IMG/VR virus record: IMGVR_UViG_3300025413_000005
Strand: one strand, 5' to 3'
Length of the DNA stretch: 37,336 nucleotides
Source of the DNA: a virus
Shown: piece by piece, positions 4,843 through 24,060 of the stretch
How the letters are laid out: the number at the start of each line of letters is the position of its first letter
How positions within the stretch are numbered: position 1 is the first letter of the stretch
Program-made: the position numbers and the translations under genes
The notes under the pieces: generated by a model
What the model was told of the DNA's origin: nothing
Databases searched by the model: none
The model's input: the letters and a program-made list of their open reading frames with translations, nothing else

Positions 4843-7800
4843 ATGCCTGATCCCGTTATGCCCGACCTTCCCATGGTCGAAAATCAAAGCCCCACAATCA
4901 ACTTGGGGCCTGATCAGTTCCATTTTGACCCCGTAGAAGCGGCCAATCAGTCGGCGGGAATGGCCCCCCAGCCCATTCATAATCCCGATTTTGCGTCCCA
5001 TCCGGAGCGCGATACGGTCCGCGCCGTCCTTAATGATCGCGCCAACCTTGGCGGAAAGCTCCCGCAAGCAGTCACCGATTCCAAGACCGATGACAATCCC
5101 CAGGATTTCCGAGACATGGCCGCCAACATCAAGGCAATGTCTTTTTATAGCGGAAAGGATACCGCTGAGATTTCCCCCAACTACGAGCAGGAGAAACAGA
5201 ATTTCGTAAAAGCACAGGGTTGGGACATGCCCAACTCAGAAGGGGCCTTTAATGGCCAGCTACGCGATTTTTTCAACACTCAGGACGCCCGACAGCAAGC
5301 GATTGAGGATCTTCATTCTAGGGCGATCCTGGACGCCGGAAAGGGCATTTCCTCCGATGAGGCGCTTCAAACATCCTGGCAAGAATGGAACACGCAACAT
5401 GCATCAGCCCTTGCCGGAGTTCCCGAGGCTGAGGCTTTTAGCGCCTGGAAAAAAGGTTACTGGAACAACCTCCAACAGCTTCAGGGCGAGCATCACGACC
5501 TTGCCCAGCAAATCGTTGATTTGTACGGCAACTTTCCTAAAGGCGAGCAGGAAGCCCAAGGGGTGAAGCAGTTGGCGGCCATAACGGCCGAGTCGGCAAA
5601 AGCACCGCTTGGCCTAGCTGGCGATCAGCCCGCCTTAAAAGCCCAGCAAACCGAGGATCAGCAAAAGGAAGAGCTTATCACCAAGCTTCAATCCCTGCCC
5701 CCGGAGGAACGCCAAAAGGTTTATCACCGCGCCGCCGCCCTGGAGAAAGCCAAGAACCCGGACAATTTCGGCATGGCCACGAGCCTTTACAGCATGGGAC
5801 AGGCAGCCGGGCGTTCGATGGATTGGCTTTCTCCTTCCGCTCCTGACGTATCGACTCCTCGTGGACGCGTTGCCTTGGAACTTCAGCACGCCGCCAGAGA
5901 CATCGTAAATCCCCTCCCCTATTCTGACGTCAATGCCTTGGACGCAACCAAAAAAGGCCTTCCAATCATTGGAACCCAAGTGGGCCAGGGTTTGGCTGGG
6001 GCTGTCCCGACGATTGGAGCTTTTGCACTCACGGGGGAATACGGCGGATTGGCCTACATGCTGGCTCAAACCTCGCTAGAAAACCGCGACCGGCTGCTTA
6101 TCAACAATCCCAGCATGACGCCCAAGGAAGCCCTTTCTTTTGGCTATCTGATGGCTGTTCCCGTCGTCGCACTTCAGTCGATTACCTTCATGGGCCTCAA
6201 GGGGGCTTTCCCATCCCTAGAAAAAGCCCTGGCTGATTGGGGTGCCGGAAAGATGTTTTTTGCTAACACGGCGGTTGGAGGTGCGGCCTTCAGTGCTTCG
6301 GAAATCGCTTCAAATCTGGCTGATTCCGCCATTCATGCCCTGAATGCAGAGTGGAATCCTGATGCCAGCGTCAAAAAGGGACTCAAAGAAACCCTTCTCA
6401 ACGCCCCTCAAGATTTTGCAATGGCCGCAGCCTTTGCCCTGCTTCACATTGGGCACAAGCCCGATACCGAAGCAGGAAAGAAACAAGCTGATCAGGCAAT
6501 GGCCGACGTCCAGAAGCCCGACGCCCCCAAGATGGTCACAACCGCCGATGGGGCTAAGGTCATTATTGCCCACGACGAAAAAGGCCAGCCCAAAGAGGTT
6601 TTCAAGACCAAGGATCCCGAGGTGGCCGCTTCCGCCCTGGAGATCGTCCACGACGAGCAAAGGCGCAACACAGACACCCCCACTCCTAAAAGCAAATGGA
6701 CCGGGGTAACGGACGATGCCAACGACGTGGCCAACGACGCGGCTAACTTCAACCTATCCAAAGATGATCAATCCCAAACTTCTAATGGAGAAAAAGGAGA
6801 CTTGACCAATTCCGCGACGGACGGAAAATCAAAGAATGCTGAAGCCGAAACATCAGGAACGCTTGCAAATACGGCAGATGCTAGCGAAGCGGGGTTGCCT
6901 ATTAGAACCCTCAATAGCAGTCTTGCATCGGAAAATAAATCGACGCGGGTCACGGCAGCAACTCCCGATCAACTTTCTAAACTTTCGTTAGACCCAAAAT
7001 TCCAGCTAGCAGATCAGTTAGCGGGAATCTTTAAGAAGCGGATCATTGTTTATTCGGGGGATGAAAATGACCCCAACGGAATTACCAGCCAAGCCACTGG
7101 TCTTGATCAATATATTTTCCTGAAGCTCGATGGAGCTAGGCCGCACTTATTTACCCTTGGCCATGAGCTATGGCATCACCTTGAGGCTGATTATAAGGAA
7201 TTAGCCAAATCGCTACGCAAAGAGCTGGCGCCCCTAATTAAGAATTGGGCGCAGATGAACGGAAAGTACCAATCCTACGGCTACAAGCCTCATCGTTTTT
7301 TTGATGAGCATGTTGCCGATTTTCTCGGCGATTCTTTCCAAGACCCAGATTTCCTAAACAACCTTCGCAATCGCAACCCAGAGGCATTCGCAGATTTCAC
7401 CACAAGGGCTCTTGAGTGGCTTAATGGTGTCCTTGAAAAGCTTAAAGGATGGGTCATGGGTGGAACCGATCACATGCGAGACATTCAATCAGCTCGCGAT
7501 ATGCTGGCCGAGGGGCTCGACAAATACCTCAACCAAGATGACAGCCCTATTGTTGGCCGCGACAGTCCTCAATGGTGGAAAGCCGAGCCCCGCGCCACTG
7601 GCGAGCGCCAGACTTTTACAGATGATCCAATCATTGCCTATCTCAATGAGAATAGGATTCGCTCTAAATCTGAGCAGGACAAAAGAAACAAATCCCAAGG
7701 CATCGAAGGAGCCGGGGAATATGACGGAGTTCCCAAGCTCCCCCCAGCCCATAGCTCTAAAATTTATGGGGGAAGTCAGAGCGTAGACCAAGCGCATCAA

Positions 7801-10800
7801 GCCCTTATTGAAGAAGGATACATGCCTGAAGATTCCACGGTCGATGACCTCTGGAATCACATAGCCAAGGCGAGTGAGAGCGCCATCAAGCAAACCAAGG
7901 CTGAAAAAGCTGAAACGGTACGTCAACGAGAAGAAGCAAAGTTTGACAAAGAACTTGCTGATTTACGCGAAAAAGACCCCGTAGAATATCGTAAGCGCCT
8001 TGCGGAGATGGAGCCAGAGGAACAAAAGCGAACCGAGCGAACGCAATTAAGAGAAAGAATGCGCCGCATGGATCGTGAAGACAGAAACTATTTCCAGAAC
8101 GCCAGGGAAGAGGACAAACGGGAAAACGAAGAAACCTTTTCTTTGAAAAACCCTGATGTTCAGGCCTACCTTGATTTAGCTCATGTCCCTGAAGAAAAAA
8201 AAGAGCAGGCCGGAGAAGCTTTTAGCCAAGTCGCCAATGCGTCAACCGCCCCCTACCCAAGGAGCGAAGTATCCGCTTCCGGAGGAGTGGATCGGGACGA
8301 GCTTCGACAAGTCCGCGAAGAACAAGCCGCCGCTTACCGGGGGCTGCTGAAAGGTGATGCCGAGGCGGTTAAAAATGCCATTGAAAACGGCGTGCCGCTT
8401 TCCAAGCTCATTGCCGCGTATGCCAAGGGAGAGGTAACGCCTTTCTCCATCCAAGGGGCAATTATCAATAGCCCCGCAGACTTGGCCGCGCACAATCTAG
8501 CGCACCGAACCCCTTTCTTTGAGAGTCTTAAAGTCGCCGTCCTCGACAACTCTAACCAAGTGATTCATTCGGAATTGATTTCGATTGGATCGCTCAATGA
8601 GTCGATAGCTCACCCGCGCGAAATCATGCGCGCCGTTGAACGTGGAAAACAAGTCGGCTCCGATTTAGGGCGCAAGATTAAAGGTTGGATGCTCATGCAT
8701 AATCATCCAAGCGGAGATCCTACCCCTAGCGAGACCGATAGGAGGCTTACTCGTCGGCTTGATGAGGTGGCCGGCATGATGGAATCCCCCCTTCTGGATC
8801 ATGTCATTACAAACGGGGAAACGTATTTTAGCTTTAATCAAGCAGGGATTAACGGAAGAGGCGTAAGCGGTGATTCGAAGCTGAAGCCAAAACTACAAAC
8901 TATCCCCAAGCCCGAAGACCTTAAAGAAGGCACAATGGCCGATTGGGAAGCCATTCCCGCCGGCGAGGCCCCAAGAATTGAACGTGCCGCAATGGTTCAA
9001 GCAATCAGGGCCACGCTTCAAACGGCTGATCCTGGAATGATTCATGTGCTGAACCTAAACACGCGCCATGGACTTATCAGCGTGGACAGGCACCCGCTCG
9101 ACGTATCCCCTGGAGAAATCCTCAAGCAGTCCTCTAAACACGGAACCTATGCCATAGCGCTTTCTTTCCCTGATACAAGCCCCGAGGGCGTTCCTATGGA
9201 CACGCAGGGCGCAATGGCTGCCTGGAGGCCGTTTGTCCGAAAGATGACCGAAGCGGGTACGCTCTATCAACTTCCACTTGTTGACGCCGTTACCAAGGAG
9301 TTTTCGTGGAGAGAGTCGGGATTGTTAGAGGAGCCTGGTAAATATGGATCAGATAACTCAGTTAATGAGGAAAAAACATATTTTCAAGCAGCGCGACCCG
9401 AGGACGATCACGTTTCCCCGCTTGAAAAGCTCAAGCAGCAAGCAAAAGCAACTTCTGATTACCTTCTCAAGCTCCCGCAAGACACGGCATTTTCTAGGGC
9501 AGTCCTAGACTTGAGCAAGAAGCGCCAGATTTCTACCCAGCAGATTCAGAAAGCTATCAAGGACATTGCAGAGGTGGCAAAGACGCCCGTAGAACGGGAA
9601 GCCCTCTTCAACTACATCGAAGCCAACGGGGACCGTGCAAAGCTCCAAAGGCAGGCCGACGCTACGGCAGACCCCAAGCTGAAAGCCGGTTACGAGGAAG
9701 CCGTCAAGGCATCCCCCGAAATGGTGGAGGTAGCCAAAGAGATTTCCAACGCCTACGCATCCATTTTGGCCCGTCTTCGTAAAGAAGGCTATGATGTCGG
9801 TGAACGCTCCAACTACGCAGGAACCCACCAATATAAAAAAGAACCAGGTGACAAGGCCCCCGTTGCCATCAAGAGGCTTACGGACAACTTCAAGTATGCC
9901 GAGAGGCGTGAGTTTAACACTGCATTTGACGCAGAGCAGGCGGGATTCAATGTCCGCACCAAGGATGCCGCTGAATTGCTGGGATCATATCTGTCCCACG
10001 CCAACGACATCCTCATCAATCGCCAGTTTGTTAAAAGCCTTTTTGGAAGCGGGGCAAAGGCAACCGATGAAAGGGCATTGGTCTCTCCCCGTGGAGGATT
10101 CGGCCAGAAGCCTAGCCCCGATTCCAAAGGTATTTACATTGACCCAGAAAGAGCACAAGTCGGAACGGCAGATTATGTTCCGCTAGATCAACCGGCGCTC
10201 AAAGGCTACCATTTCATTGACCAGAAGCAGAACATCGCGGTCAAAGGTGATTTTGCCGTTCACCCGGAGATTGCGCGGCATATTAACAACATCTTTGGGG
10301 AATCCAAACTGAAGCAGGCGTACAACGACCCGCACCTCAACCCTGCCCTAAAGCCGCTTGTTAAGATCCTACAGGGCGCAGATCTAGCCGGTCAGTATGC
10401 CAAAGCCACCCTTTACTCTGGTCTATCGTTTTTCCACCAAGCTCACGAAGGCTTCAACGTCATATTCCACGGGGTCAATCCGATTGAATACAAGTCTGCC
10501 CCCGACATTGAACATGACCCCCTCGCCCGTGATGCGGCAGAACATGGCGTCCAGTTGGCGCCTGACAGAATGACGCAGGATCAGTTCAAGCAAGAGATCG
10601 GAGAGCAAAGCAAGAGTCTCCTGACAATGGGTCTCCGAGCCGCAAAGCTGAAGCCAACCGATGCGGTAGCCGATTGGATTGACGGGTACACTCATTACCT
10701 TTTCGAAAACTACATCCCAAACATGAAGCTCAAAGCCTATCAGATGGCCCTTGAGCGCAACATGAAGCTTTTTGAAAAAGAATTGGCATCGGGTAAAGTG

Positions 10801-11793
10801 AATGAACGGCAAGTCAAGATGATGTCGGCATACCAGGCAAACGAGTATGCGGGACACCAGAACCTTACCGTGATGGGCAGAAGCCCGACCTTTCAGCACC
10901 TTGCTTCGATCTTCCTGGGCGCTCCCGATTTCCTAGAAGCGCAGGCACGTTTCCAAGGTCACGCCCTGCTTGGGCTAACCGGCTCCAAGGCTAATCGTGA
11001 GTTTCTTCGTGCAGCGGCATTGCAGGCAATCACGATGTTTATCGGCGCTAGGATTCTGAACTACGCAATCAATCAGGAGCTAGGCCTAGACCATCCTTTT
11101 GAGATCCGTATCAGAGATCGGTATTATGGATTCCGTTCTAGGACGGGTGACACCTACAACCTTATTAAAGACATTGTCGAAAACGGGGTGCCGACCACGT
11201 TCCTTTCTGGGCGAATTTCTCCTTTGGTTGGGAAATTTATGTTGGAGGCAGCTTCTCACAAAAACTACCGAGGGGAACGAGTTGGAATCGGCGGATTGAT
11301 TGCCGACACCCTTGCAGGAATCGTCCCAATTTCCACGCAACCCTTGATTCGCCAATGGACGACCACGGGTAAAAACAACCCTATTTCTGCTTTTGAGCAG
11401 TTGGTGGCAAACGTGCTTGGTTTCCAAATCCATCGGTATAGCCCGATTACCAACACCTACCCCATTGCACGGGCGTGGATGAAGGCCAACTACCCCGATA
11501 AGGTCAACGAGGACATTCACCCGACCGGCAAATTTACGCACCTCAAATACGCCCTTGAGGATGGCGACACTCAAAAATCGCAAGATGAAATCCAAAACCT
11601 TTTAAAGTCGGGCATGACCCTTCAACAAATCTCCACCAAGTTTAAGGCGAGTCTCAACCACCCGTTCACGGATTCAAAAGAGCATGAAGAGGAGTTTGTA
11701 AAATCATTGGAAGGGGAACACCTCAAAACTTACCAAGCAGCCATGGAAAGAAAAAAACTGATCCTAGAGCGGTTCCAGAACCTCCCTAGATAG
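4843..11793 (+). CDS. Giant (2316 aa) polyvalent internal virion/ejection protein: membrane-insertion segments, HExxH zincin domain, E/R/K helix, RadC-like JAB domain plus degenerate second JAB, large C-terminal region
   Basis: Uninterrupted 6951-nt ORF in the gp16 position. HELWHH at 7162-7179. MLMHNHPSGDPTPSETD (HNHPSG 8698-8715) is the RadC/JAB metal site. Hydrophobic G/A-rich segments at about 5950-6460. Confidence 0.9.
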   Translation: MPDPVMPDLPMVENQSPTINLGPDQFHFDPVEAANQSAGMAPQPIHNPDFASHPERDTVRAVLNDRANLGGKLPQAVTDSKTDDNPQDFRDMAANIKAMSFYSGKDTAEISPNYEQEKQNFVKAQGWDMPNSEGAFNGQLRDFFNTQDARQQAIEDLHSRAILDAGKGISSDEALQTSWQEWNTQHASALAGVPEAEAFSAWKKGYWNNLQQLQGEHHDLAQQIVDLYGNFPKGEQEAQGVKQLAAITAESAKAPLGLAGDQPALKAQQTEDQQKEELITKLQSLPPEERQKVYHRAAALEKAKNPDNFGMATSLYSMGQAAGRSMDWLSPSAPDVSTPRGRVALELQHAARDIVNPLPYSDVNALDATKKGLPIIGTQVGQGLAGAVPTIGAFALTGEYGGLAYMLAQTSLENRDRLLINNPSMTPKEALSFGYLMAVPVVALQSITFMGLKGAFPSLEKALADWGAGKMFFANTAVGGAAFSASEIASNLADSAIHALNAEWNPDASVKKGLKETLLNAPQDFAMAAAFALLHIGHKPDTEAGKKQADQAMADVQKPDAPKMVTTADGAKVIIAHDEKGQPKEVFKTKDPEVAASALEIVHDEQRRNTDTPTPKSKWTGVTDDANDVANDAANFNLSKDDQSQTSNGEKGDLTNSATDGKSKNAEAETSGTLANTADASEAGLPIRTLNSSLASENKSTRVTAATPDQLSKLSLDPKFQLADQLAGIFKKRIIVYSGDENDPNGITSQATGLDQYIFLKLDGARPHLFTLGHELWHHLEADYKELAKSLRKELAPLIKNWAQMNGKYQSYGYKPHRFFDEHVADFLGDSFQDPDFLNNLRNRNPEAFADFTTRALEWLNGVLEKLKGWVMGGTDHMRDIQSARDMLAEGLDKYLNQDDSPIVGRDSPQWWKAEPRATGERQTFTDDPIIAYLNENRIRSKSEQDKRNKSQGIEGAGEYDGVPKLPPAHSSKIYGGSQSVDQAHQALIEEGYMPEDSTVDDLWNHIAKASESAIKQTKAEKAETVRQREEAKFDKELADLREKDPVEYRKRLAEMEPEEQKRTERTQLRERMRRMDREDRNYFQNAREEDKRENEETFSLKNPDVQAYLDLAHVPEEKKEQAGEAFSQVANASTAPYPRSEVSASGGVDRDELRQVREEQAAAYRGLLKGDAEAVKNAIENGVPLSKLIAAYAKGEVTPFSIQGAIINSPADLAAHNLAHRTPFFESLKVAVLDNSNQVIHSELISIGSLNESIAHPREIMRAVERGKQVGSDLGRKIKGWMLMHNHPSGDPTPSETDRRLTRRLDEVAGMMESPLLDHVITNGETYFSFNQAGINGRGVSGDSKLKPKLQTIPKPEDLKEGTMADWEAIPAGEAPRIERAAMVQAIRATLQTADPGMIHVLNLNTRHGLISVDRHPLDVSPGEILKQSSKHGTYAIALSFPDTSPEGVPMDTQGAMAAWRPFVRKMTEAGTLYQLPLVDAVTKEFSWRESGLLEEPGKYGSDNSVNEEKTYFQAARPEDDHVSPLEKLKQQAKATSDYLLKLPQDTAFSRAVLDLSKKRQISTQQIQKAIKDIAEVAKTPVEREALFNYIEANGDRAKLQRQADATADPKLKAGYEEAVKASPEMVEVAKEISNAYASILARLRKEGYDVGERSNYAGTHQYKKEPGDKAPVAIKRLTDNFKYAERREFNTAFDAEQAGFNVRTKDAAELLGSYLSHANDILINRQFVKSLFGSGAKATDERALVSPRGGFGQKPSPDSKGIYIDPERAQVGTADYVPLDQPALKGYHFIDQKQNIAVKGDFAVHPEIARHINNIFGESKLKQAYNDPHLNPALKPLVKILQGADLAGQYAKATLYSGLSFFHQAHEGFNVIFHGVNPIEYKSAPDIEHDPLARDAAEHGVQLAPDRMTQDQFKQEIGEQSKSLLTMGLRAAKLKPTDAVADWIDGYTHYLFENYIPNMKLKAYQMALERNMKLFEKELASGKVNERQVKMMSAYQANEYAGHQNLTVMGRSPTFQHLASIFLGAPDFLEAQARFQGHALLGLTGSKANREFLRAAALQAITMFIGARILNYAINQELGLDHPFEIRIRDRYYGFRSRTGDTYNLIKDIVENGVPTTFLSGRISPLVGKFMLEAASHKNYRGERVGIGGLIADTLAGIVPISTQPLIRQWTTTGKNNPISAFEQLVANVLGFQIHRYSPITNTYPIARAWMKANYPDKVNEDIHPTGKFTHLKYALEDGDTQKSQDEIQNLLKSGMTLQQISTKFKASLNHPFTDSKEHEEEFVKSLEGEHLKTYQAAMERKKLILERFQNLPR

Positions 11794-18361: not shown

Positions 18362-18415
18362 CTGACAGATTCTTTCGAGACCAACCCTCGGAAATTGTCA
18401 GCGTTTTGATTTTTG
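18362..18415 (+). terminator. Candidate intrinsic terminator after the endolysin gene
   Basis: ctgacagatt (18362-18371) pairs with aattgtcag (18393-18401) with one bulge, followed by cgttttgatttttg. Confidence 0.4.
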
Positions 18416-18568
18416 CTGACACTTTACTCTGAAGAAATGTTAAGTTCGAATCCCTCCCTCACCGCCATTCTTCAGAGTAGAAGAATCGGCCTTTGACACT
18501 GATAAAACCTAGCTTTGCGGGTCTGTGCGCTTTCTTGCGTTTCTGTGCGTTTCGGTGCAAAGTGTCAG
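18416..18568 (+). other. attP region: tRNA-derived core flanked by a 12-bp inverted repeat, TGACACT arm-type candidates and 10-bp-phased TGCG repeats
   Basis: Non-coding gap directly upstream of int. IR tactctgaagaa 18425-18436 / ttcttcagagta 18468-18479. ctgacacttt at 18416-18425 (+) and 18559-18568 (-). TGCG at 18516, 18526, 18536, 18546 and TGCA at 18556. Confidence 0.65.
18444..18467 (+). other. 3-prime fragment of a tRNA gene (T-loop, 3-prime T-stem, acceptor 3-prime strand, discriminator G, CCA); probably tRNA-Ser-like; not a functional tRNA
   Basis: gttcgaatccctccctcaccgcca. TTCGAAT T-loop and ...CCTCACCGCCA match the end of E. coli tRNA-Ser(GCU) as I recall it. No matching 5-prime acceptor strand (ggtgagg) or 5-prime T-stem upstream. 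Confidence 0.6.
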
Positions 18569-18571
18569 GAC

Positions 18572-19606
18572 ATGTCAGCGACTCCAAAGCAACGATCTCG
18601 CCGGTTGACTCCCCGTTTTTACCCTTCTGAGGATAGGTGGGCCGTTGACCTTCCGGCCGACATGAACGCCGGCCATCGGGGTAGAAAGTTTTTTAAGCGC
18701 CAAGATAGCGCTTTTCGGTTCATTGCTCGGTTCATGGCCGCAAGCCGACTTTTGGGTCTGAAAGATCGCGTGGAGCGCGACGGATCGGCCGACACGATAG
18801 GCGGACTCGTTCCCCTCTACCTGGGCAAGATGGAACTGGATGGCCACTCCGCCGACGGGATCAAGCAGGCCAAGACATGCCTCCGGCGCTTCGTGCTTTC
18901 CTTCGGGGATCTTTCCCCCGACCAGCTTACCGCCGACGACATCGGGGATTGGCTGGCGCGTCTGGACTTCTCAACGCGCACCATCTGGAACCACTGGAGC
19001 CAGGCACGGCAATTCTTCAACTGGAAGGCCGTGCGCGAAATCGCCAAGGAATCCCCCTTCCATGACCAGGACGCCCCCGACAAGAGTGACCCCGACGCAA
19101 GGAAGCAAATTCTCACCCCCGAGCAAATGGCGGGGCTCCTCGCCCTCCCGATCACCGACCCCTGGATCAAATGCAAGATTGTCCTAGGGGGGTTTGCTGG
19201 CCTGAGGACGTGCGAGCTTTCGCGCATGACATACGAGTGCATTGATGCCGAGTATCAGGAGATCAACGTGAACGCCGCCCAGGCAAAGCAGGGCAAAGCC
19301 ATGAGGCCGCGAAGTATCACCCTCCAAGATGCCGTCAAGCGCCACCTCCCCGAGGGCACCGGCTCGCTCGTGGGTAACAGCAAGGAGTGGCGTCATCATC
19401 GCGGGATGCCCGAAGAGGCCAAGCTAGGCCTAGAGCGTTTTCCCCAGAATGCCCTCCGGCACAGCTTCGCGAGCTATCACCTGGCGCATTTCCGCGACCC
19501 AGCCAAGACCGCCTTCGAGATGGGACACACCTCCCCTCGCCTGCTTTACGAGACCTACGCCAACACGGTTTCCCGCCGGGATGCCGCGAGGTGGTGGACG
19601 CTTTGA
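18572..19606 (+). CDS. int: Tyrosine recombinase / phage integrase
   Basis: ATG 18572; the track's 18515 start runs into the phased att repeats. C-terminal catalytic pattern LRTCEL (Arg), NALRHSFASYHL (H-x-x-R), MGHTSPRLLYETYA (His and Tyr). Adjacent to the tRNA-fragment att site. Confidence 0.9.
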   Translation: MSATPKQRSRRLTPRFYPSEDRWAVDLPADMNAGHRGRKFFKRQDSAFRFIARFMAASRLLGLKDRVERDGSADTIGGLVPLYLGKMELDGHSADGIKQAKTCLRRFVLSFGDLSPDQLTADDIGDWLARLDFSTRTIWNHWSQARQFFNWKAVREIAKESPFHDQDAPDKSDPDARKQILTPEQMAGLLALPITDPWIKCKIVLGGFAGLRTCELSRMTYECIDAEYQEINVNAAQAKQGKAMRPRSITLQDAVKRHLPEGTGSLVGNSKEWRHHRGMPEEAKLGLERFPQNALRHSFASYHLAHFRDPAKTAFEMGHTSPRLLYETYANTVSRRDAARWWTL

Positions 19607-19608
19607 TT

Positions 19609-19884
19609 ATGAAAATGCTTGGTCTGATTTTGTCTTTCTATGGGATTTTTCTGCTTCTTTTGATAATCTCGGGATTTCCAATTAAAAAAGCGCCACTCAG
19701 ATCCGCTTTGATTACACCAATCTTTATATCTTTCATCATTTTGATGAAGCTGAGTTTTTTGCTTTCCGAGAGAATCTTTGCCAATCAGTGGCTTCAAATC
19801 GTTGCCGGAATGTTTTTTACTCTATCTGCTTTAACGGCTCTCTGCTGGTGTTTCGATTACGCTAGAAACCTTGGAAAACACTAG
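19609..19884 (+). CDS. AT-rich three-TM membrane protein (moron; superinfection-exclusion/lysogenic-conversion candidate)
   Basis: ATG 19609, 2 nt after the int stop. 91 aa with three hydrophobic segments. First 100 nt hand-counted at 37% G+C, against about 50-67% in hand-counted blocks elsewhere. Confidence 0.6.
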   Translation: MKMLGLILSFYGIFLLLLIISGFPIKKAPLRSALITPIFISFIILMKLSFLLSERIFANQWLQIVAGMFFTLSALTALCWCFDYARNLGKH

Positions 19885-19919
19885 CGCTACGGCTGAAAAA
19901 GATTTCTGAAAAAAAGTTC

Positions 19920-19948
19920 TTGCGGGTTCAGTGAACCTTCTGCATGAT
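19920..19948 (+). promoter_or_regulatory. Candidate promoter TTGCGG-17 nt-CATGAT with palindromic operator (ggttcagtgaacc, 19925-19937) filling the spacer
   Basis: Read directly. The palindrome recurs as gggttcagtgaaccc at 20283-20297. Upstream of the RHH genes. Confidence 0.35.
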
Positions 19949-20225
19949 CTTTCCCATGGCAGACATGCACAGCCCTGACAAAGAGCCTCTTTCCTTCCAG
20001 GCACCACGTACAACCGTTGTGTCTCTGAAGAAAGAAGCTCGTCGCCTTGGGCTTCCGCTGTCCGTTCATCTCACACGAATACTTGCGGCAGAAACATCCC
20101 ATATTGAACTGAATGAAGACGACTACCAAGCCATCAAGGAAGCCACGGCGCTTGCCCGTAAAACCGGAAAAAGAATTGCGACTGTCCTTCCAGGCACCGC
20201 GTCACATAGTCGCAAGAATCCGTAA
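19944..20225 (+). CDS. Ribbon-helix-helix (Arc/MetJ/CopG-type) regulator 1
   Basis: KEPLSFQAPRTTVVSLKKEARRLGLPLSVHLTRILAAE fits strand-helix-helix. The start may be 19956 or 19965 if the promoter call is right. The last ~17 codons read the RHH2 strand out of frame and look like junk. Confidence 0.55.
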   Translation: MIFPMADMHSPDKEPLSFQAPRTTVVSLKKEARRLGLPLSVHLTRILAAETSHIELNEDDYQAIKEATALARKTGKRIATVLPGTASHSRKNP

Positions 20226-20310
20226 GCAAGCAATGAGTGAGCATCGTAGCCTCTCAAATCAAACAGCCTTTTTTTTAATTCAGGGTTCAGTGAACCCATC
20301 ACCCCGCTAA
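20113..20310 (+). CDS. Ribbon-helix-helix regulator 2 (paralogue of RHH1, +1 frame, 113-nt overlap)
   Basis: ELRLSFQAPRHIVARIRKQAMSEHRSLSNQTAFFLIQG. Shares the 14-nt tccttccaggcacc with RHH1 (19992-20005 vs 20185-20198). The true start is uncertain (ATG 20113 or TTG 20176). Confidence 0.55.
   Translation: MKTTTKPSRKPRRLPVKPEKELRLSFQAPRHIVARIRKQAMSEHRSLSNQTAFFLIQGSVNPSPR
20283..20297. promoter_or_regulatory. Second copy of the operator-like palindrome (perfect 15-mer GGGTTCA-G-TGAACCC)
   Basis: gggttcagtgaaccc at the 3-prime end of the second RHH ORF, just before the next gene block. Confidence 0.4.
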
Positions 20311-20320
20311 CCCCATCAAG

Positions 20321-20422
20321 ATGAAGAAATCACCTCGCGAAGAGATGCGTTCACAGCATGCGGTCGCGCAACTTCGCGAGCTAAGAAAATCAACAGGGAA
20401 TCAAGATCAGATCGCGTCATGA
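20321..20422 (+). CDS. Very small ORF (33 aa) coupled by ATGA to the excisionase-like gene
   Basis: ATG 20321 ... TGA 20420-20422 overlapping ATG 20419. MKKSPREEMRSQHAVAQLRELRKSTGNQDQIAS. Below the ORF-track length cutoff. Confidence 0.3.
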   Translation: MKKSPREEMRSQHAVAQLRELRKSTGNQDQIAS

Positions 20423-20607
20423 CCTCTTCTGTATCCATTACCCCGGCAGCCCTCAAACCCAAAGAGGCCGCCCGCTATCTCTCGCTTTCCGAGAGGGCGA
20501 TTTACAACCTGATTGAGCGCAAGGAGCTGAAGGCCCGCAAGGTTGGCCGCTCAACCATTCTCCGAGTCCGTGACCTGGACGCTTTCCTAAACCGAGAAGA
20601 CGCATGA
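20419..20607 (+). CDS. Excisionase/AlpA-type helix-turn-helix DNA-binding protein
   Basis: 62 aa. LKPKEAARYLSLSERAIYNLIERKELKARKVGRSTILRVRDLDAFL is the typical excisionase-family HTH pattern. Located near int. Confidence 0.7.
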   Translation: MTSSVSITPAALKPKEAARYLSLSERAIYNLIERKELKARKVGRSTILRVRDLDAFLNREDA

Positions 20608-21098
20608 GCTTCCCCGGCGCCGCCCTTCCAAGCTTTCCCGTCATTCCGATGGGAGAAACCAACCCAAAAACAACAACACCCATGTCTTACACATCACTAA
20701 AAGCTGAAACCGACACTATTACGGCTAAAATACAAAGCATCGTAGACCTCATTCGCACGGCAACGCTTGCCGAGCTACAGGTCATCGAAGGGCACCTTGG
20801 TCTTGCTCGTCAGGATATTGCCCCTGAGACCACCACTTTTCGCGATTTTGACTATCGCCTCGGACTGATCGTGAACGAGCTTCATAACGTCGAATCTGAA
20901 ATGTTGGACGCCGTGGCTTTTGTTCTGGCTCCCCCCGTAGAGCAAACTAGCCCAACGGATCCCGAAGCAATCCCCGTCCCCTTAACCCCTGAGGTTAATG
21001 AAATCACTCAGGCCCCCGCCGATACCACCGCCGAAAACGGTGCAGCCTCTTCAGGCGCTTCGGCTGAGGCCGCCAACCCTGATCAGCCCGTCTCCTGA
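20604..21098 (+). CDS. Acidic hypothetical early protein
   Basis: 164-aa ORF with ATGA overlap. From Met at 20682, hand count 22 Asp/Glu vs 6 Lys/Arg. No recognisable motif. Confidence 0.55.
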   Translation: MSFPGAALPSFPVIPMGETNPKTTTPMSYTSLKAETDTITAKIQSIVDLIRTATLAELQVIEGHLGLARQDIAPETTTFRDFDYRLGLIVNELHNVESEMLDAVAFVLAPPVEQTSPTDPEAIPVPLTPEVNEITQAPADTTAENGAASSGASAEAANPDQPVS

Positions 21099-22855: not shown

Positions 22856-23102
22856 GGAGCTGCACCACGGTCATGAGTGCAAGGACGGCTCCGGCTACGG
22901 CGACGGCTCCGGCGACGGCTCCGGCTACGGCTCCGGCTACGGCTACGGCGACGGCTCCGGCGACGGCGACGGCGACGGCTCCGGCGACGGCTCCGGCTAC
23001 GGCTCCGGCTACGGCTCCGGCTACGGCGACGGCGACGGCTCCGGCGACGGCTCCGGCTACGGCGACGGCTACGGCTACGGCGACGGCTCCGGCGACGGCT
23101 AA
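22833..23102 (+). CDS. Low-complexity protein: 17-aa His/Cys-containing head plus strictly alternating (X-Gly)36, X = Asp/Ser/Tyr
   Basis: ATG 22833 (23-nt overlap with the upstream gene), stop 23100-23102. All frames are open over the repeat, so frame choice is uncertain. This frame is the only one with an ATG upstream of the whole array, and it uses common-looking codons (GGC GAC TCC TAC). Confidence 0.45.
   Translation: MSNSSRIKELHHGHECKDGSGYGDGSGDGSGYGSGYGYGDGSGDGDGDGSGDGSGYGSGYGSGYGDGDGSGDGSGYGDGYGYGDGSGDG
22884..23099. repeat. 216-nt hexanucleotide array made only of GACGGC, TCCGGC and TACGGC units (36 units)
   Basis: Read directly. No deviation from the NNCGGC pattern across 36 units. 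Confidence 0.95.
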
Positions 23103-23169
23103 GCGAACCGCCGCACCAACTCAATCACCACTCTAACCATCTACCCCCAACAACCAACCCCGTCATAAC

Positions 23170-24060
23170 ATGTCTATCCTATCCAAAATCAAGCGCGGTG
23201 GAGAAACCCTTCCTCCCCGCGTCCTCCTCTCGGGCCCCGAGGGCATCGGCAAGAGTACCTTTGCCGCCAACGCCCCCTCCCCGCTCTTCATCTCCCAGGA
23301 GAACGGGCTCACCGGCCTAGATCACGTCGCGCACCTTTCGCCCGAGTCCTTTGCGGACACGCTGGCGATGGTGGATGAGCTAACGGCCAATCCCTCCGAG
23401 TACAAAACTCTCGTGCTCGATACGATGGATTGGCTAGAGCGTTCGATCCACGCCTTTATTTGCGCCCGCGACGGTAAGCAGAACGTCGAGGATTACGGTT
23501 ACGGCAAGGGCTATAAGGTAGCCGAGGCCGAGCTTGTCCTGCTTCTCAACAAGCTGGATGCGCTCCGCTCCTCTCAGAAGGTGGGCGTAATCCTTCTCTC
23601 ACACGTTCAAATTAAAGCGTTCACCTCCCCCGAGGGAACCGCCTGGGATCGCTACGAGATGAAAGGCCACAAGGGATTCACGGGAATCCTTCGCGAATGG
23701 CCAGATGCCTGCCTGTTTGCCGTCTATGAGGTCCACAAGATGAAGGAGCGCGGCGAGAACCGGGAGCGCGTCATCGGTGGGGATCGCGTGGTTCACACCT
23801 CTTGGAGCCCCGGATGGGATGCCAAGAACCGCCTCGGTCTTCCCGAGATCCTTCCCCTCTCCTACGAGGAATTTGCCGCGGCCGTGGAGGCTAACAGCCC
23901 TTCTAAGCTCCGCGCCGAGTTCATGGCCCTGCTGGAGTCCTCCACCCTGGACGCCGCTGCCCGCAAGGCCTGGACAAAAACCCCCGTTGAAACCCTCGCC
24001 CCCGACCGCATCCGCGCCGGGATCGCCAAACTCCAAAAACTCCAACCCGTCACCAAGTAA
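23170..24060 (+). CDS. Sak4-like RecA-fold ATPase (AAA_24-type single-strand annealing/recombination protein)
   Basis: Walker A LLSGPEGIGKST, Walker B TLVLDTMD. Overall pattern (...YGKGY...LLSH...) as in phage Sak4/AAA_24 proteins. Flanked by a nuclease and an SSB-like gene. Confidence 0.8.
   Translation: MSILSKIKRGGETLPPRVLLSGPEGIGKSTFAANAPSPLFISQENGLTGLDHVAHLSPESFADTLAMVDELTANPSEYKTLVLDTMDWLERSIHAFICARDGKQNVEDYGYGKGYKVAEAELVLLLNKLDALRSSQKVGVILLSHVQIKAFTSPEGTAWDRYEMKGHKGFTGILREWPDACLFAVYEVHKMKERGENRERVIGGDRVVHTSWSPGWDAKNRLGLPEILPLSYEEFAAAVEANSPSKLRAEFMALLESSTLDAAARKAWTKTPVETLAPDRIRAGIAKLQKLQPVTK

Follow-up and report, generated by a model that had tools for sequence, protein, structure and literature searches.

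A candidate two-repressor cassette of overlapping ribbon-helix-helix genes at the integrase/early-gene boundary of an uncultured temperate phage

Does a shift of one base inside a small regulatory locus mark a broken gene, a recoded gene or two genes that overlap? The question is raised by positions 19920-20310 of the IMG/VR virus record IMGVR_UViG_3300025413_000005, a stretch of 37,336 nucleotides (nt) referred to here as the window. Two open reading frames (ORFs) at this locus, ORF1 and ORF2, both show a ribbon-helix-helix (RHH) pattern, lie one base out of frame with each other at a run of five adenines (A5 run) and are bracketed by two copies of a palindrome. The initial annotation, made from the window alone, offered three explanations, namely an assembly error in the homopolymer, a +1 recoding or phase-variable site, or two overlapping genes, and it named the locus as a candidate for lysogeny control. 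Based on our data, the third explanation holds. As judged from its pattern of substitutions across lineages, ORF2 is a real overlapping gene under purifying selection, and the locus is likely an autoregulated two-repressor RHH cassette of temperate phages, placed at the boundary between the integrase and the early genes. The cassette is compact, with a promoter, a candidate operator, two paralogous RHH genes and a second operator in about 390 base pairs (bp). The promoter hexamers, the palindromes, the A5 run, both ORFs and a 14-mer shared between them all lie where the initial annotation had placed them:

19920-19948, + strand: candidate promoter P1, with a -35 hexamer TTGCGG (19920-19925), a 17-nt spacer and a -10 hexamer CATGAT (19943-19948)
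19924-19937: candidate operator O1, GGGTTCAGTGAACC, whose 13-bp palindrome GGTTCA-G-TGAACC (GGTTCAGTGAACC, 19925-19937) fills the P1 spacer
19956-20225, + strand: ORF1, 89 amino acids (aa), gene-called at 89 aa in 8 contigs
19989-20009, + strand: DNA of the ORF1 beta-strand (LSFQAPR), identical at 19 of 21 positions to 20182-20202
20113 or 20176 to 20310, + strand: ORF2, in the +1 frame relative to ORF1, 65 aa from ATG 20113 or 44 aa from TTG 20176
20168-20172, + strand: A5 run, ordinary coding sequence within the ORF1 codons GGA AAA AGA (G-K-R) of the conserved TGKR motif
20182-20202, + strand: DNA of the ORF2 beta-strand (LSFQAPR), read as T-V-L-P-G-T-A in the ORF1 frame
20269-20276, + strand: T8 run, ORF2 codons F-F-L, 6 nt upstream of O2
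20283-20297: O2, a perfect 15-bp palindrome, GGGTTCAGTGAACCC, within the 3' end of ORF2 and 24 nt before the next ORF

We searched 1.8 billion representative proteins using HMMER with the hypothetical fused ORF1-ORF2 protein as the query and recovered 31 homologues of ORF1. Common to them are an N-terminal arm MPNxHSPDKEP, a strand-helix-helix segment, a third helix (DYxAIAxAT) and a C-terminal motif TG-x-R-x-A-T. The window protein starts at ATG 19956, from which MADMHSPDKEP aligns with the family arm; the alternative ATG at 19944 falls within the -10 hexamer. In this protein, the arm (MxxxHSPDKEP) is followed by the RHH domain (strand LSFQA; helices 18-31 and 35-47), a third helix (54-70), K-R-I-A-T and a tail. 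An AlphaFold2 model built from a 32-sequence alignment (predicted local distance difference test, pLDDT, of 87.8) had an extended segment at residues 1-17 and a disordered tail, and its top Foldseek matches were all RHH proteins: CopG (probability 0.99), Arc and RHH antitoxins. The CopG structures 1ea4 and 2cpg matched best, with a TM-score of 0.78 normalised to the target and about 25% identity over 44 residues. The window ORF1 matched none of the Pfam RHH families (RHH_1, Arc, CopG_antitoxin and others) above the curated threshold; other members of its family gave sub-threshold or marginal matches to RHH_1 (6.7e-5) and CopG_antitoxin (8.6e-4), and a profile search of the PDB yielded E values of 0.03 or worse. 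By its modelled fold, ORF1 is an RHH protein that lies outside every existing Pfam family.

The initial annotation had regarded ORF1 as genuine only as far as KTGK, just at the A5 run. This boundary was set four residues too early: KTGK-RIAT of the window fits the family consensus AxxTGxRxAT in ORF1's own frame, past the A5 run, and the R-x-A-T residues are kept in the ORF1 frame even in lineages without ORF2. Only the final 13 residues, VLPGTASHSRKNP, are an unconstrained read across ORF2. Eight contigs from different samples and assemblers encode the same 89-aa ORF1 and are 100% identical over 920 bp (683 bp for the short contig L008), so the A5 run is reproducible. The only other member of the ORF1 protein cluster is a 93-aa call from the alternative start. 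A homopolymer assembly error is ruled out by these eight identical assemblies, which are one clone and uninformative on evolution.

The evolutionary evidence on the junction came from the relatives. Positions equivalent to the A5 run read GGC AAG CGT, GGT CAG CGA, GGC AGA CGT or CGC AAG CGT, and AAA AGA was found at the junction only in the window and in L029; the junction codons thus vary by lineage, and no shift-prone motif is conserved. None of the 31 homologues (0/31) was fused, every match to the fused query being a single stretch that covered the ORF1 part only. Comparison of fused and split versions at orthologous loci, which the initial annotation had suggested, gave the same answer throughout: the two units were never in one frame, either in about 12 lineages or in the 31 database homologues. 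With no two-domain homologue and no conserved shift motif, a fused single-chain pseudo-dimer or recoding at the A5 run found no support.

ORF2 itself was found in the +1 frame over the 3' tail of ORF1 in about 12 lineages whose ORF1 is approximately 45-55% identical to that of the window (the window, L024, L025, L026, L028, L029, L100, L101, L102/111/112, L103, L104 and L107-110). Its sequence is, for example, LRLSFQAPRHIVARIRKQAMSEHRSLSNQTAFFLIQGSVNP in the window, VPLALMVPRDLKGKLMNGARRSYRSLNRHCVFLLSQGSVNP in L028 and LPLNIQIPRDVKARLLKQSKAEFRSLSAHCAFLLSEGSVN in L102, and it is absent in three ORF1-bearing lineages (L023, L027 and L105). In the 22 codons of ORF2 that do not overlap ORF1, L102 and L108 differ by nine synonymous and no non-synonymous changes (0-1 non-synonymous when both L107 and L108 are compared with L102), and L108 and L112 by eight synonymous and none non-synonymous. 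Within the overlap, constraint passes from one frame to the other. On the 5' side of the RRIAT codons, differences between groups are synonymous when read as ORF1 but non-synonymous when read in the frame of ORF2; from the RRIAT codons on, the reverse applies, with synonymous changes in ORF2 and non-synonymous ones in ORF1, whose stop codon is even displaced. The invariant Thr of ORF1 is encoded by ACT, which supplies the invariant Leu (CTN) of ORF2, in 12 of 12 ORF2-bearing lineages, whereas the same codon is ACG, ACC and ACC in the three lineages that lack ORF2 (ACT in 0/3). The strand-helix-helix pattern of ORF2 has also been kept between lineages in which synonymous sites are saturated. 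Of the three initial explanations, two overlapping genes is therefore the one that these patterns of purifying selection support.

The protein encoded by ORF2 has the pattern of a minimal RHH protein, with strand LSFQA and helices at about 30-43 and 50-57 in the 65-aa numbering. A profile of the ORF2 family aligned with that of ORF1 over the strand and two helices (hhalign) at 95.7% probability and E=1e-8, indicating that ORF1 and ORF2 are paralogous, as had been proposed from the window. Its best PDB sequence matches were Mnt (E=0.048) and pArc and Arc (E 0.06-1.7), all with weak E values; the Pfam family Arc was matched by 3 of 11 ORF2 members at E 0.03 or worse, and RHH_5 at E=0.0045, under its cut-off. 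A single-sequence model of ORF2 (pLDDT 71) had the secondary structure expected of an RHH protein. Gene callers almost never report this gene: a profile search of 5.8 billion proteins returned two entries, both truncated at an internal ATG. We rejected the open +1 frame upstream of ORF2 as coding evidence. The codon and amino-acid composition of ORF1 makes +1 stops rare, and the ORF2-less locus L027 is equally open.

The two genes of the window also share the DNA of their reading heads. An exact 14-mer, TCCTTCCAGGCACC, occurs at 19992 and 20185, once in each ORF and within the 21-nt segment that matches at 19 of 21 positions, and both proteins carry LSFQAPR where the family consensus is LSLQIPR. 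Over 30 nt, the strand segments of ORF1 and ORF2 are identical at 21 of 30 positions in the window versus 13-17 of 30 in 10 other lineages. The strand DNA has been homogenised specifically in the window lineage, apparently through gene conversion or through concerted selection that keeps the two reading heads identical.

Are the palindromes operators? In the 37-kb window, GGTTCAGTGAACC occurs only twice, at 19925 and 20284, and a repeat analysis lists the two copies as a 14-nt direct repeat. As well as in the window, O1 fills the promoter spacer before ORF1 in 11 further lineages, and the palindrome abuts the -35 hexamer before the ORF1 homologues of L024, L025, L027, L028, L029, L100, L102, L103, L104 and L107-112. 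Relatives have TTGACG in the same register followed by a TAnnTT -10 hexamer, and the full pattern in L024, L025, L028, L029, L102, L103 and L107-112 is TTGAC-GGTTCA(G/C)TGAACC, about 4-5 nt and TAnnTT. In the window, the -10 hexamer ends 7 nt before the ORF1 ATG, and L104 has the same geometry (TTGCCA-16-TATGAT-7-ATG versus TTGCGG-17-CATGAT-7-ATG). The ORF1 messenger RNA is probably leaderless on this spacing, which would explain why no Shine-Dalgarno sequence precedes ORF1 in the window. Many database homologues of ORF1 (proteins P0003-P0013, P0021, P0024 and P0029; L028 379-600; L029 907-1149) have spurious N-terminal extensions of 45-120 aa, which arise from gene calls continued through the promoter and operator upstream; the peptide (I/V)DGS(L/V)NL that recurs in these extensions is a translation of TTGAC-GGTTCA(C/G)TGAACC. 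Further upstream, some extensions contain an 'IPRELAxKL' motif that resembles an RHH strand and first helix.

At the other end of the cassette, one or two copies of O2 were found in every lineage with DNA there, usually 74-80 nt past the ORF1 stop, and these copies directly precede the ribosome-binding site or start codon of the next gene. The last codons of ORF2 in the window (Q-G-S-V-N-P) coincide with O2, and the conserved C-terminal G-S-(V/L)-N of the ORF2 family is a translation of the operator. Variants of the operator include GGTTCAATGAACC (L024), GGTTCAAGTAACC (L026), GGTTCACGTAACC (L027) and an 11-bp core GTTCA-N-TGAAC (L104). In L101, O1 (850-862) is the symmetric variant GGTGCACTGCACC, GGTGCA-C-TGCACC, in which both half-sites have changed, as expected for a two-fold symmetric binder; this lineage is a natural specificity variant that should be useful for deriving ribbon-to-operator recognition rules. 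Downstream in L101 are a hybrid site, GGTGCACTGAACC, and a degenerate site, GGTTCAGTGTACC (1227-1239 and 1303-1315). L029 has O2 copies at 1478 and 1512 and, in addition, an operator-like 11-bp palindrome, GTTCAATGAAC, at 1440-1450, inside ORF2 (codons R-S-M-N-K) and 9 nt past the ORF1 stop.

A chance origin of the cassette is excluded less by statistics within the window than by conservation, as both the palindrome positions and the +1-frame ORF recur in about 12 diverged lineages. When the neighbouring genes of the window were compared with the relatives by tblastn, only ORF1 was found. Because the flanking genes are unrelated to those of the window, the operators travel with the RHH genes and not with the integrase or the HTH_17 gene (described below). 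L027 has kept both operators without ORF2, and the predicted reading residues, located four and two residues before the strand-ending Pro-Arg (Ser and Gln in ORF1), are steadier in ORF1 than in ORF2 among lineages with canonical operators; both points suggest ORF1 as the main binder of the palindrome. That the palindromes are conserved operators is strongly supported by their placement across lineages, in agreement with what had been proposed for the promoter-spacer copy and the copy before the next gene block. The overlap of an operator with the repressor's own promoter is the layout of an autoregulated cassette, a suggestion that comes from position.

A T-rich run precedes O2 not only in the window but in all nine other lineages read by eye (9/9), as an unbroken T7 in six and as TTTTCTTTT in L102 and L107/L108. 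In L024 this run lies out of the ORF2 reading frame. There, the second half of ORF2 (locus 418-598) differs (LSGLPPDRAAEQIIEAFLAVAEDRL) and ends before the T run, and the ancestral segment TGTCTTTTTTTGGGCCAAAGGTTCAATGAACC is kept downstream in another frame, so the T run and operator may be conserved as DNA apart from ORF2 coding. The run is a candidate UP-like element, terminator tract or coding sequence. A terminator role is unproven: no terminator was predicted in the window, and only some lineages, the window not among them, have a hairpin ahead of the run.

All genes of the window are on one strand, and the cassette is co-directional with the early genes. On its 5' side are structural and lysis genes, the tyrosine integrase and a low-GC ORF; on its 3' side follow the HTH_17 gene, an exonuclease, a Sak4-like annealing protein, RusA, a replication initiator, a DnaC-like loader and the terminase. 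The immediate neighbours are:

18734-19606, + strand: tyrosine integrase (PHROG phrog_1 integrase, E=1e-24; Pfam Phage_integrase, 26.2 bits, slightly under the 27.1 cut-off)
19609-19884, + strand: 91-aa moron-like ORF in the gap between integrase and cassette, gene-called in L003 and L005
20321-20422, + strand: 33-aa ORF, MKKSPREEMRSQHAVAQLRELRKSTGNQDQIAS, in the gap between O2 and the HTH_17 gene, whose ATG its stop codon overlaps
20419-20607, + strand: HTH_17 (excisionase/MerR-like) protein, 62 aa (Pfam HTH_17, E=4e-13)

The integrase bounds follow the 290-aa gene call of relatives, the mechanical ORF opening at 18515. The HTH_17 gene is the first recognisable gene past O2 and heads the early block, whose further members (a PD-(D/E)XK exonuclease, the Sak4-like protein, RusA, the replication initiator and the DnaC-like loader) were assigned by PHROGs matches; L027 and L029 likewise have an HTH_17-type gene directly after O2. 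The 33-aa ORF was gene-called in none of the eight contigs (0/8) and matched no family. The 91-aa ORF has a GC content of 0.36-0.40 versus about 0.60 in its neighbours (integrase), is hydrophobic and membrane-protein-like by eye only, and matched no Pfam or PHROG family; it resembles a moron gained by horizontal transfer, perhaps one for superinfection exclusion.

The integrase adjoins the cassette in three lineages (the window, L025 and L109). Relatives of the integrase (L009-L022) have a different single RHH-like ORF, or none, at the equivalent place and were therefore of no use for the comparison of fused and split loci. L013 and L014 (approximately 4911-5120) and L010 (approximately 5560-5730), whose integrases are 66-71% identical to that of the window, carry a single unrelated small ORF that is RHH-like by eye (e.g., MPNQRKKGNKQATLWLTPVEKSVLKKLAAQSGMTVSAYLKKEV) in the slot between integrase and HTH_17 gene; L009, L011 and L012 have no RHH-like ORF there. 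This regulator slot appears to be mosaic.

How might such a cassette work? In the reading that we consider likely, its order would be P1/O1, the Mnt-like RHH gene ORF1, the Arc-like minimal RHH gene ORF2 and O2, with ORF2 overprinted on the dispensable C-terminal tail of ORF1 and both proteins presumably translated separately from the frames as assembled. RHH dimers would read the 13-bp palindrome GGTTCA-N-TGAACC with an inserted two-stranded beta-ribbon. Protein bound at O1, which lies between the -35 and -10 hexamers, would shut off P1 and result in negative autoregulation, and occupancy of O2 would prevent expression of the early operon by promoter occlusion, by a block to read-through from P1 or by bridging between O1 and O2. 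ORF2, which has the identical reading head LSFQAPR in this phage, could compete or cooperate at these sites, paralleling the relation of Arc to Mnt in immI of phage P22. ORF1 is the more likely primary binder, and its third helix may serve dimer-dimer cooperativity or O1-O2 bridging. In general, the ribbon of RHH proteins sets specificity (PMC3413123). In RHH proteins with a third helix, such as Mnt and Reg576, this helix serves dimer-dimer contacts, and the repeats bound by Arc, CopG and AmrZ are spaced by about one turn of the DNA helix (PMC6294495). The binding partners, autoregulation, effect of O2 and lysogeny role put forward here would follow this RHH precedent. A role in lysogeny control, as the initial annotation had suggested, is plausible from position. 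A lysogeny or immunity function is also reasonable given the adjacent integrase and the early region of the window, in which no CI/XRE-type or other repressor-like protein was detected, although not every small ORF was tested.

Several observations count against this picture. P1 matches the consensus at 8 of 12 positions, under the threshold of the sigma-70 scan, which found no promoter at threshold in 19500-20700. No convincing promoter or terminator was seen at O2 in the window, so the action of O2 is guesswork. Co-variation between ribbon and operator is not clean, the ORF1 ribbon of L024 having G/M despite a near-canonical operator, and in L023 an ORF1 homologue occurs without ORF2 or any operator, which shows that the family is not tied to the cassette everywhere. 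The RHH assignment of ORF2 depends on sub-threshold sequence and profile matches, and its single-sequence model had no structural match in the fold search. A TTG or GTG seven codons before the strand-ending Pro-Arg is present in only 6 of 12 lineages (TTG 20176 in the window). A +1-frame ATG further upstream was found in 12 of 12 lineages, at the same position in nine of them, 17 codons upstream of that codon (ATG 20113 in the window), where it is created by the ORF1 codons GAC TAT Gxx (Asp-Tyr-x). The extra tail read from this ATG had three non-synonymous and no synonymous differences (L102 versus L107), that is, no purifying selection, and no Shine-Dalgarno sequence is evident for ORF2. Finally, an induction route of the kind expected of a repressor that maintains lysogeny, such as RecA-dependent cleavage or an antirepressor, was not identified.

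There is some room, albeit limited, for a cassette that acts as an early-gene timer or Cro-like autoregulator, with lysogeny maintained by another protein that we did not recognise. The cassette is co-directional with the operon it would control and stands at its head, which is the layout of Cro, Arc and Reg576 and not the divergent layout of CI; this layout fits such an autoregulator and a lysogeny or immunity role equally well. Self-repression through multiple operators is the logic of Reg576 (PMC6294495), and a tightly cooperative RHH repressor would give a pulse of early or establishment expression after entry, as Reg576 does in plasmid pLS20. Several early ORFs have no assignable function, and in L023 the ORF1 homologue lies in a run of small genes in which the next ORF resembles, by eye only, an XRE-type helix-turn-helix protein. 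On the other side are the early region of the window, with no repressor-like protein detected among the ORFs tested, and the adjoining integrase in three lineages.

A rather doubtful variant of the two-gene reading is that ORF1 and ORF2 act as an obligate or regulated pair, either as a heterodimer to which each contributes one strand or with ORF2 made by non-canonical translation (reinitiation or start-codon-independent +1 entry on the ORF1 message), so that a stoichiometry set by the overlap would be the switch variable. The homogenised reading-head DNA, the invariable +1 frame, the want of a universal ORF2 start codon and the operator inside the last codons of ORF2 would be in keeping with it.

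A single-chain tandem RHH protein, that is, one gene split at the A5 run by a frameshift in assembly or by mutation, or joined there by +1 frameshifting or slippage, is very improbable. It would account for ORF2 being always in the +1 frame, with its strand always starting a few codons past the TGKR of ORF1, and for the half of the lineages that have no canonical start codon beside the ORF2 strand; the hand-over of constraint at RRIAT is also expected of a frameshift product. In the window, AAA AGA would permit +1 re-pairing of the lysine transfer RNA (tRNA) before AGA, a codon whose rarity is assumed from E. coli. Single-chain tandem RHH proteins do occur in nature, among them TraY of the F plasmid and AvtR, and the AvtR structure 4hv0 was among the structure and sequence matches. 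However, no fused homologue was found among 1.8 billion representatives, and the A5 run, identical in eight assemblies, is replaced in relatives by the codons listed above, which bar +1 re-pairing. R-x-A-T of ORF1 continues past the junction in its own frame, ORF2-less lineages included, and a run of five adenines is too short for efficient transcriptional slippage.

It is still harder to believe that ORF2 is unexpressed, with ORF1 alone functional and 20226-20310 a non-coding leader conserved for cis elements (the T run and operator). The two gene calls in 5.8 billion proteins, the absence of a clear ribosome-binding site or universal start codon, the T run and operator kept by L024 in a frame other than that of the N-terminal half of ORF2, and the lack of ORF2 in L027 and L105 would all agree with this, but the nine synonymous versus 0-1 non-synonymous differences in its unique part, the strand-helix-helix kept despite synonymous saturation, the profile-level homology to the RHH domain of ORF1 and the ACT bias at the overlap speak for a translated gene. 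Equally far-fetched is a use of the palindromes as recombination-directionality or integrase arm sites, sites for the HTH_17 protein or terminators, which the position between the integrase and an excisionase-like gene and the T-rich run before O2 might suggest, but the palindrome accompanies ORF1 homologues amid unrelated flanking genes, O1 sits precisely in the promoter spacer before ORF1, an RNA stem would have a 1-nt loop with the T run before and not after it, and no terminator was predicted.

Elsewhere in the window, the gap between lysis genes and integrase (18407-18577; GC about 0.47) contains a perfect 12-nt inverted repeat, TACTCTGAAGAA (18425-18436) and TTCTTCAGAGTA (18468-18479), and a longer imperfect one with arms at 18407-18433 and 18551-18577; these repeats are candidates for an attP core or a terminator. 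No tRNA gene was found in the window. The structural block includes a single ORF of 2316 aa (4843-11793), unusually large for a 37-kb phage, followed by ORFs of 843 and 562 aa, and the length of a tail-region protein differs among strains (829, 833 or 843 aa). In L001, a 37,128-bp contig of the same phage, gene coordinates are offset by 180 nt relative to the window at about 22900-23170, between DUF6948 and the Sak4-like gene, indicating an indel between otherwise near-identical genomes.

Outside the loci described here, the cassette was hard to trace. DNA and protein searches of GenBank phages gave no match, a word-index protein search with the fused query returned only the window's own ORF1, and a search of viral contigs with the 164-aa neighbouring protein found no relatives; neither the ORF1 nor the ORF2 family had a Pfam, PHROG or GenBank-phage match at threshold. 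Scans for the promoter-plus-operator pattern yielded 64 matches in 596 billion genome bases and five in viral contigs. None of these lay beside an ORF1 homologue, and about 140 genome matches are expected by chance (our own estimate), so the genome matches are at chance level and identify no host. An Rfam search found nothing relevant, and a literature search for the operator sequence returned irrelevant papers only.

The annotation question can thus be answered: neither a frameshift error nor a pseudogene accounts for the locus. The analysis brings to light a conserved overprinted family, ORF2, that automatic gene calling misses almost entirely, and a candidate for the control of early transcription or lysogeny in uncultured temperate phages in which no CI-type repressor was detected. 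The pair may also represent a natural case in which two DNA-reading heads have evolved together inside overlapping genes.

As a regulatory device, the cassette is a variation on the well-understood Arc/Mnt/CopG theme and introduces no new principle. The closest likeness is to immI of P22, where a temperate phage likewise has two paralogous RHH repressors side by side. In both, a longer member with a C-terminal helix (Mnt, 82 aa; ORF1, 89 aa) is paired with a minimal RHH protein (Arc, 53 aa; ORF2, 44-65 aa), specificity is assigned to the N-terminal strand, and an operator lies within or between promoter hexamers; Mnt and Arc are also the best PDB sequence matches of the ORF2 profile. In P22, mnt and arc are divergent and non-overlapping, have different operators and control an antirepressor gene. 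Here, in contrast, the genes are co-directional, the second is overprinted on the first in the +1 frame and both carry the same reading head; the proposed target is the early operon, no antirepressor gene is visible, and the similarity to Arc and Mnt is below family thresholds.

TraY and AvtR (the latter from Acidianus filamentous virus 6, PDB 4hv0) have two RHH units in one polypeptide, unlike the units described here, which share a frame in none of the lineages or database homologues. CopG (RepA) of pMV158, to which the ORF1 model is structurally closest, is autoregulatory and binds a pseudo-symmetric 13-bp element overlapping its own promoter, much as a 13-bp palindrome lies in the P1 spacer here. 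It differs in being a 45-aa minimal RHH protein that controls plasmid copy number, with no paralogous partner and no third helix. Reg576 of the Bacillus plasmid pLS20 belongs to a plasmid system with heptamer-repeat operators, a single repressor gene and no overlapping paralogue, and no sequence relationship to ORF1 or ORF2 was detectable. Nevertheless, like ORF1, it is an RHH protein with an extra C-terminal helix, which is implicated in dimer-dimer contacts, and its highly cooperative operator binding, through which it represses both itself and co-directional 'establishment' genes (PMC6294495), provides a possible model for how ORF1 might act at O1 and O2.

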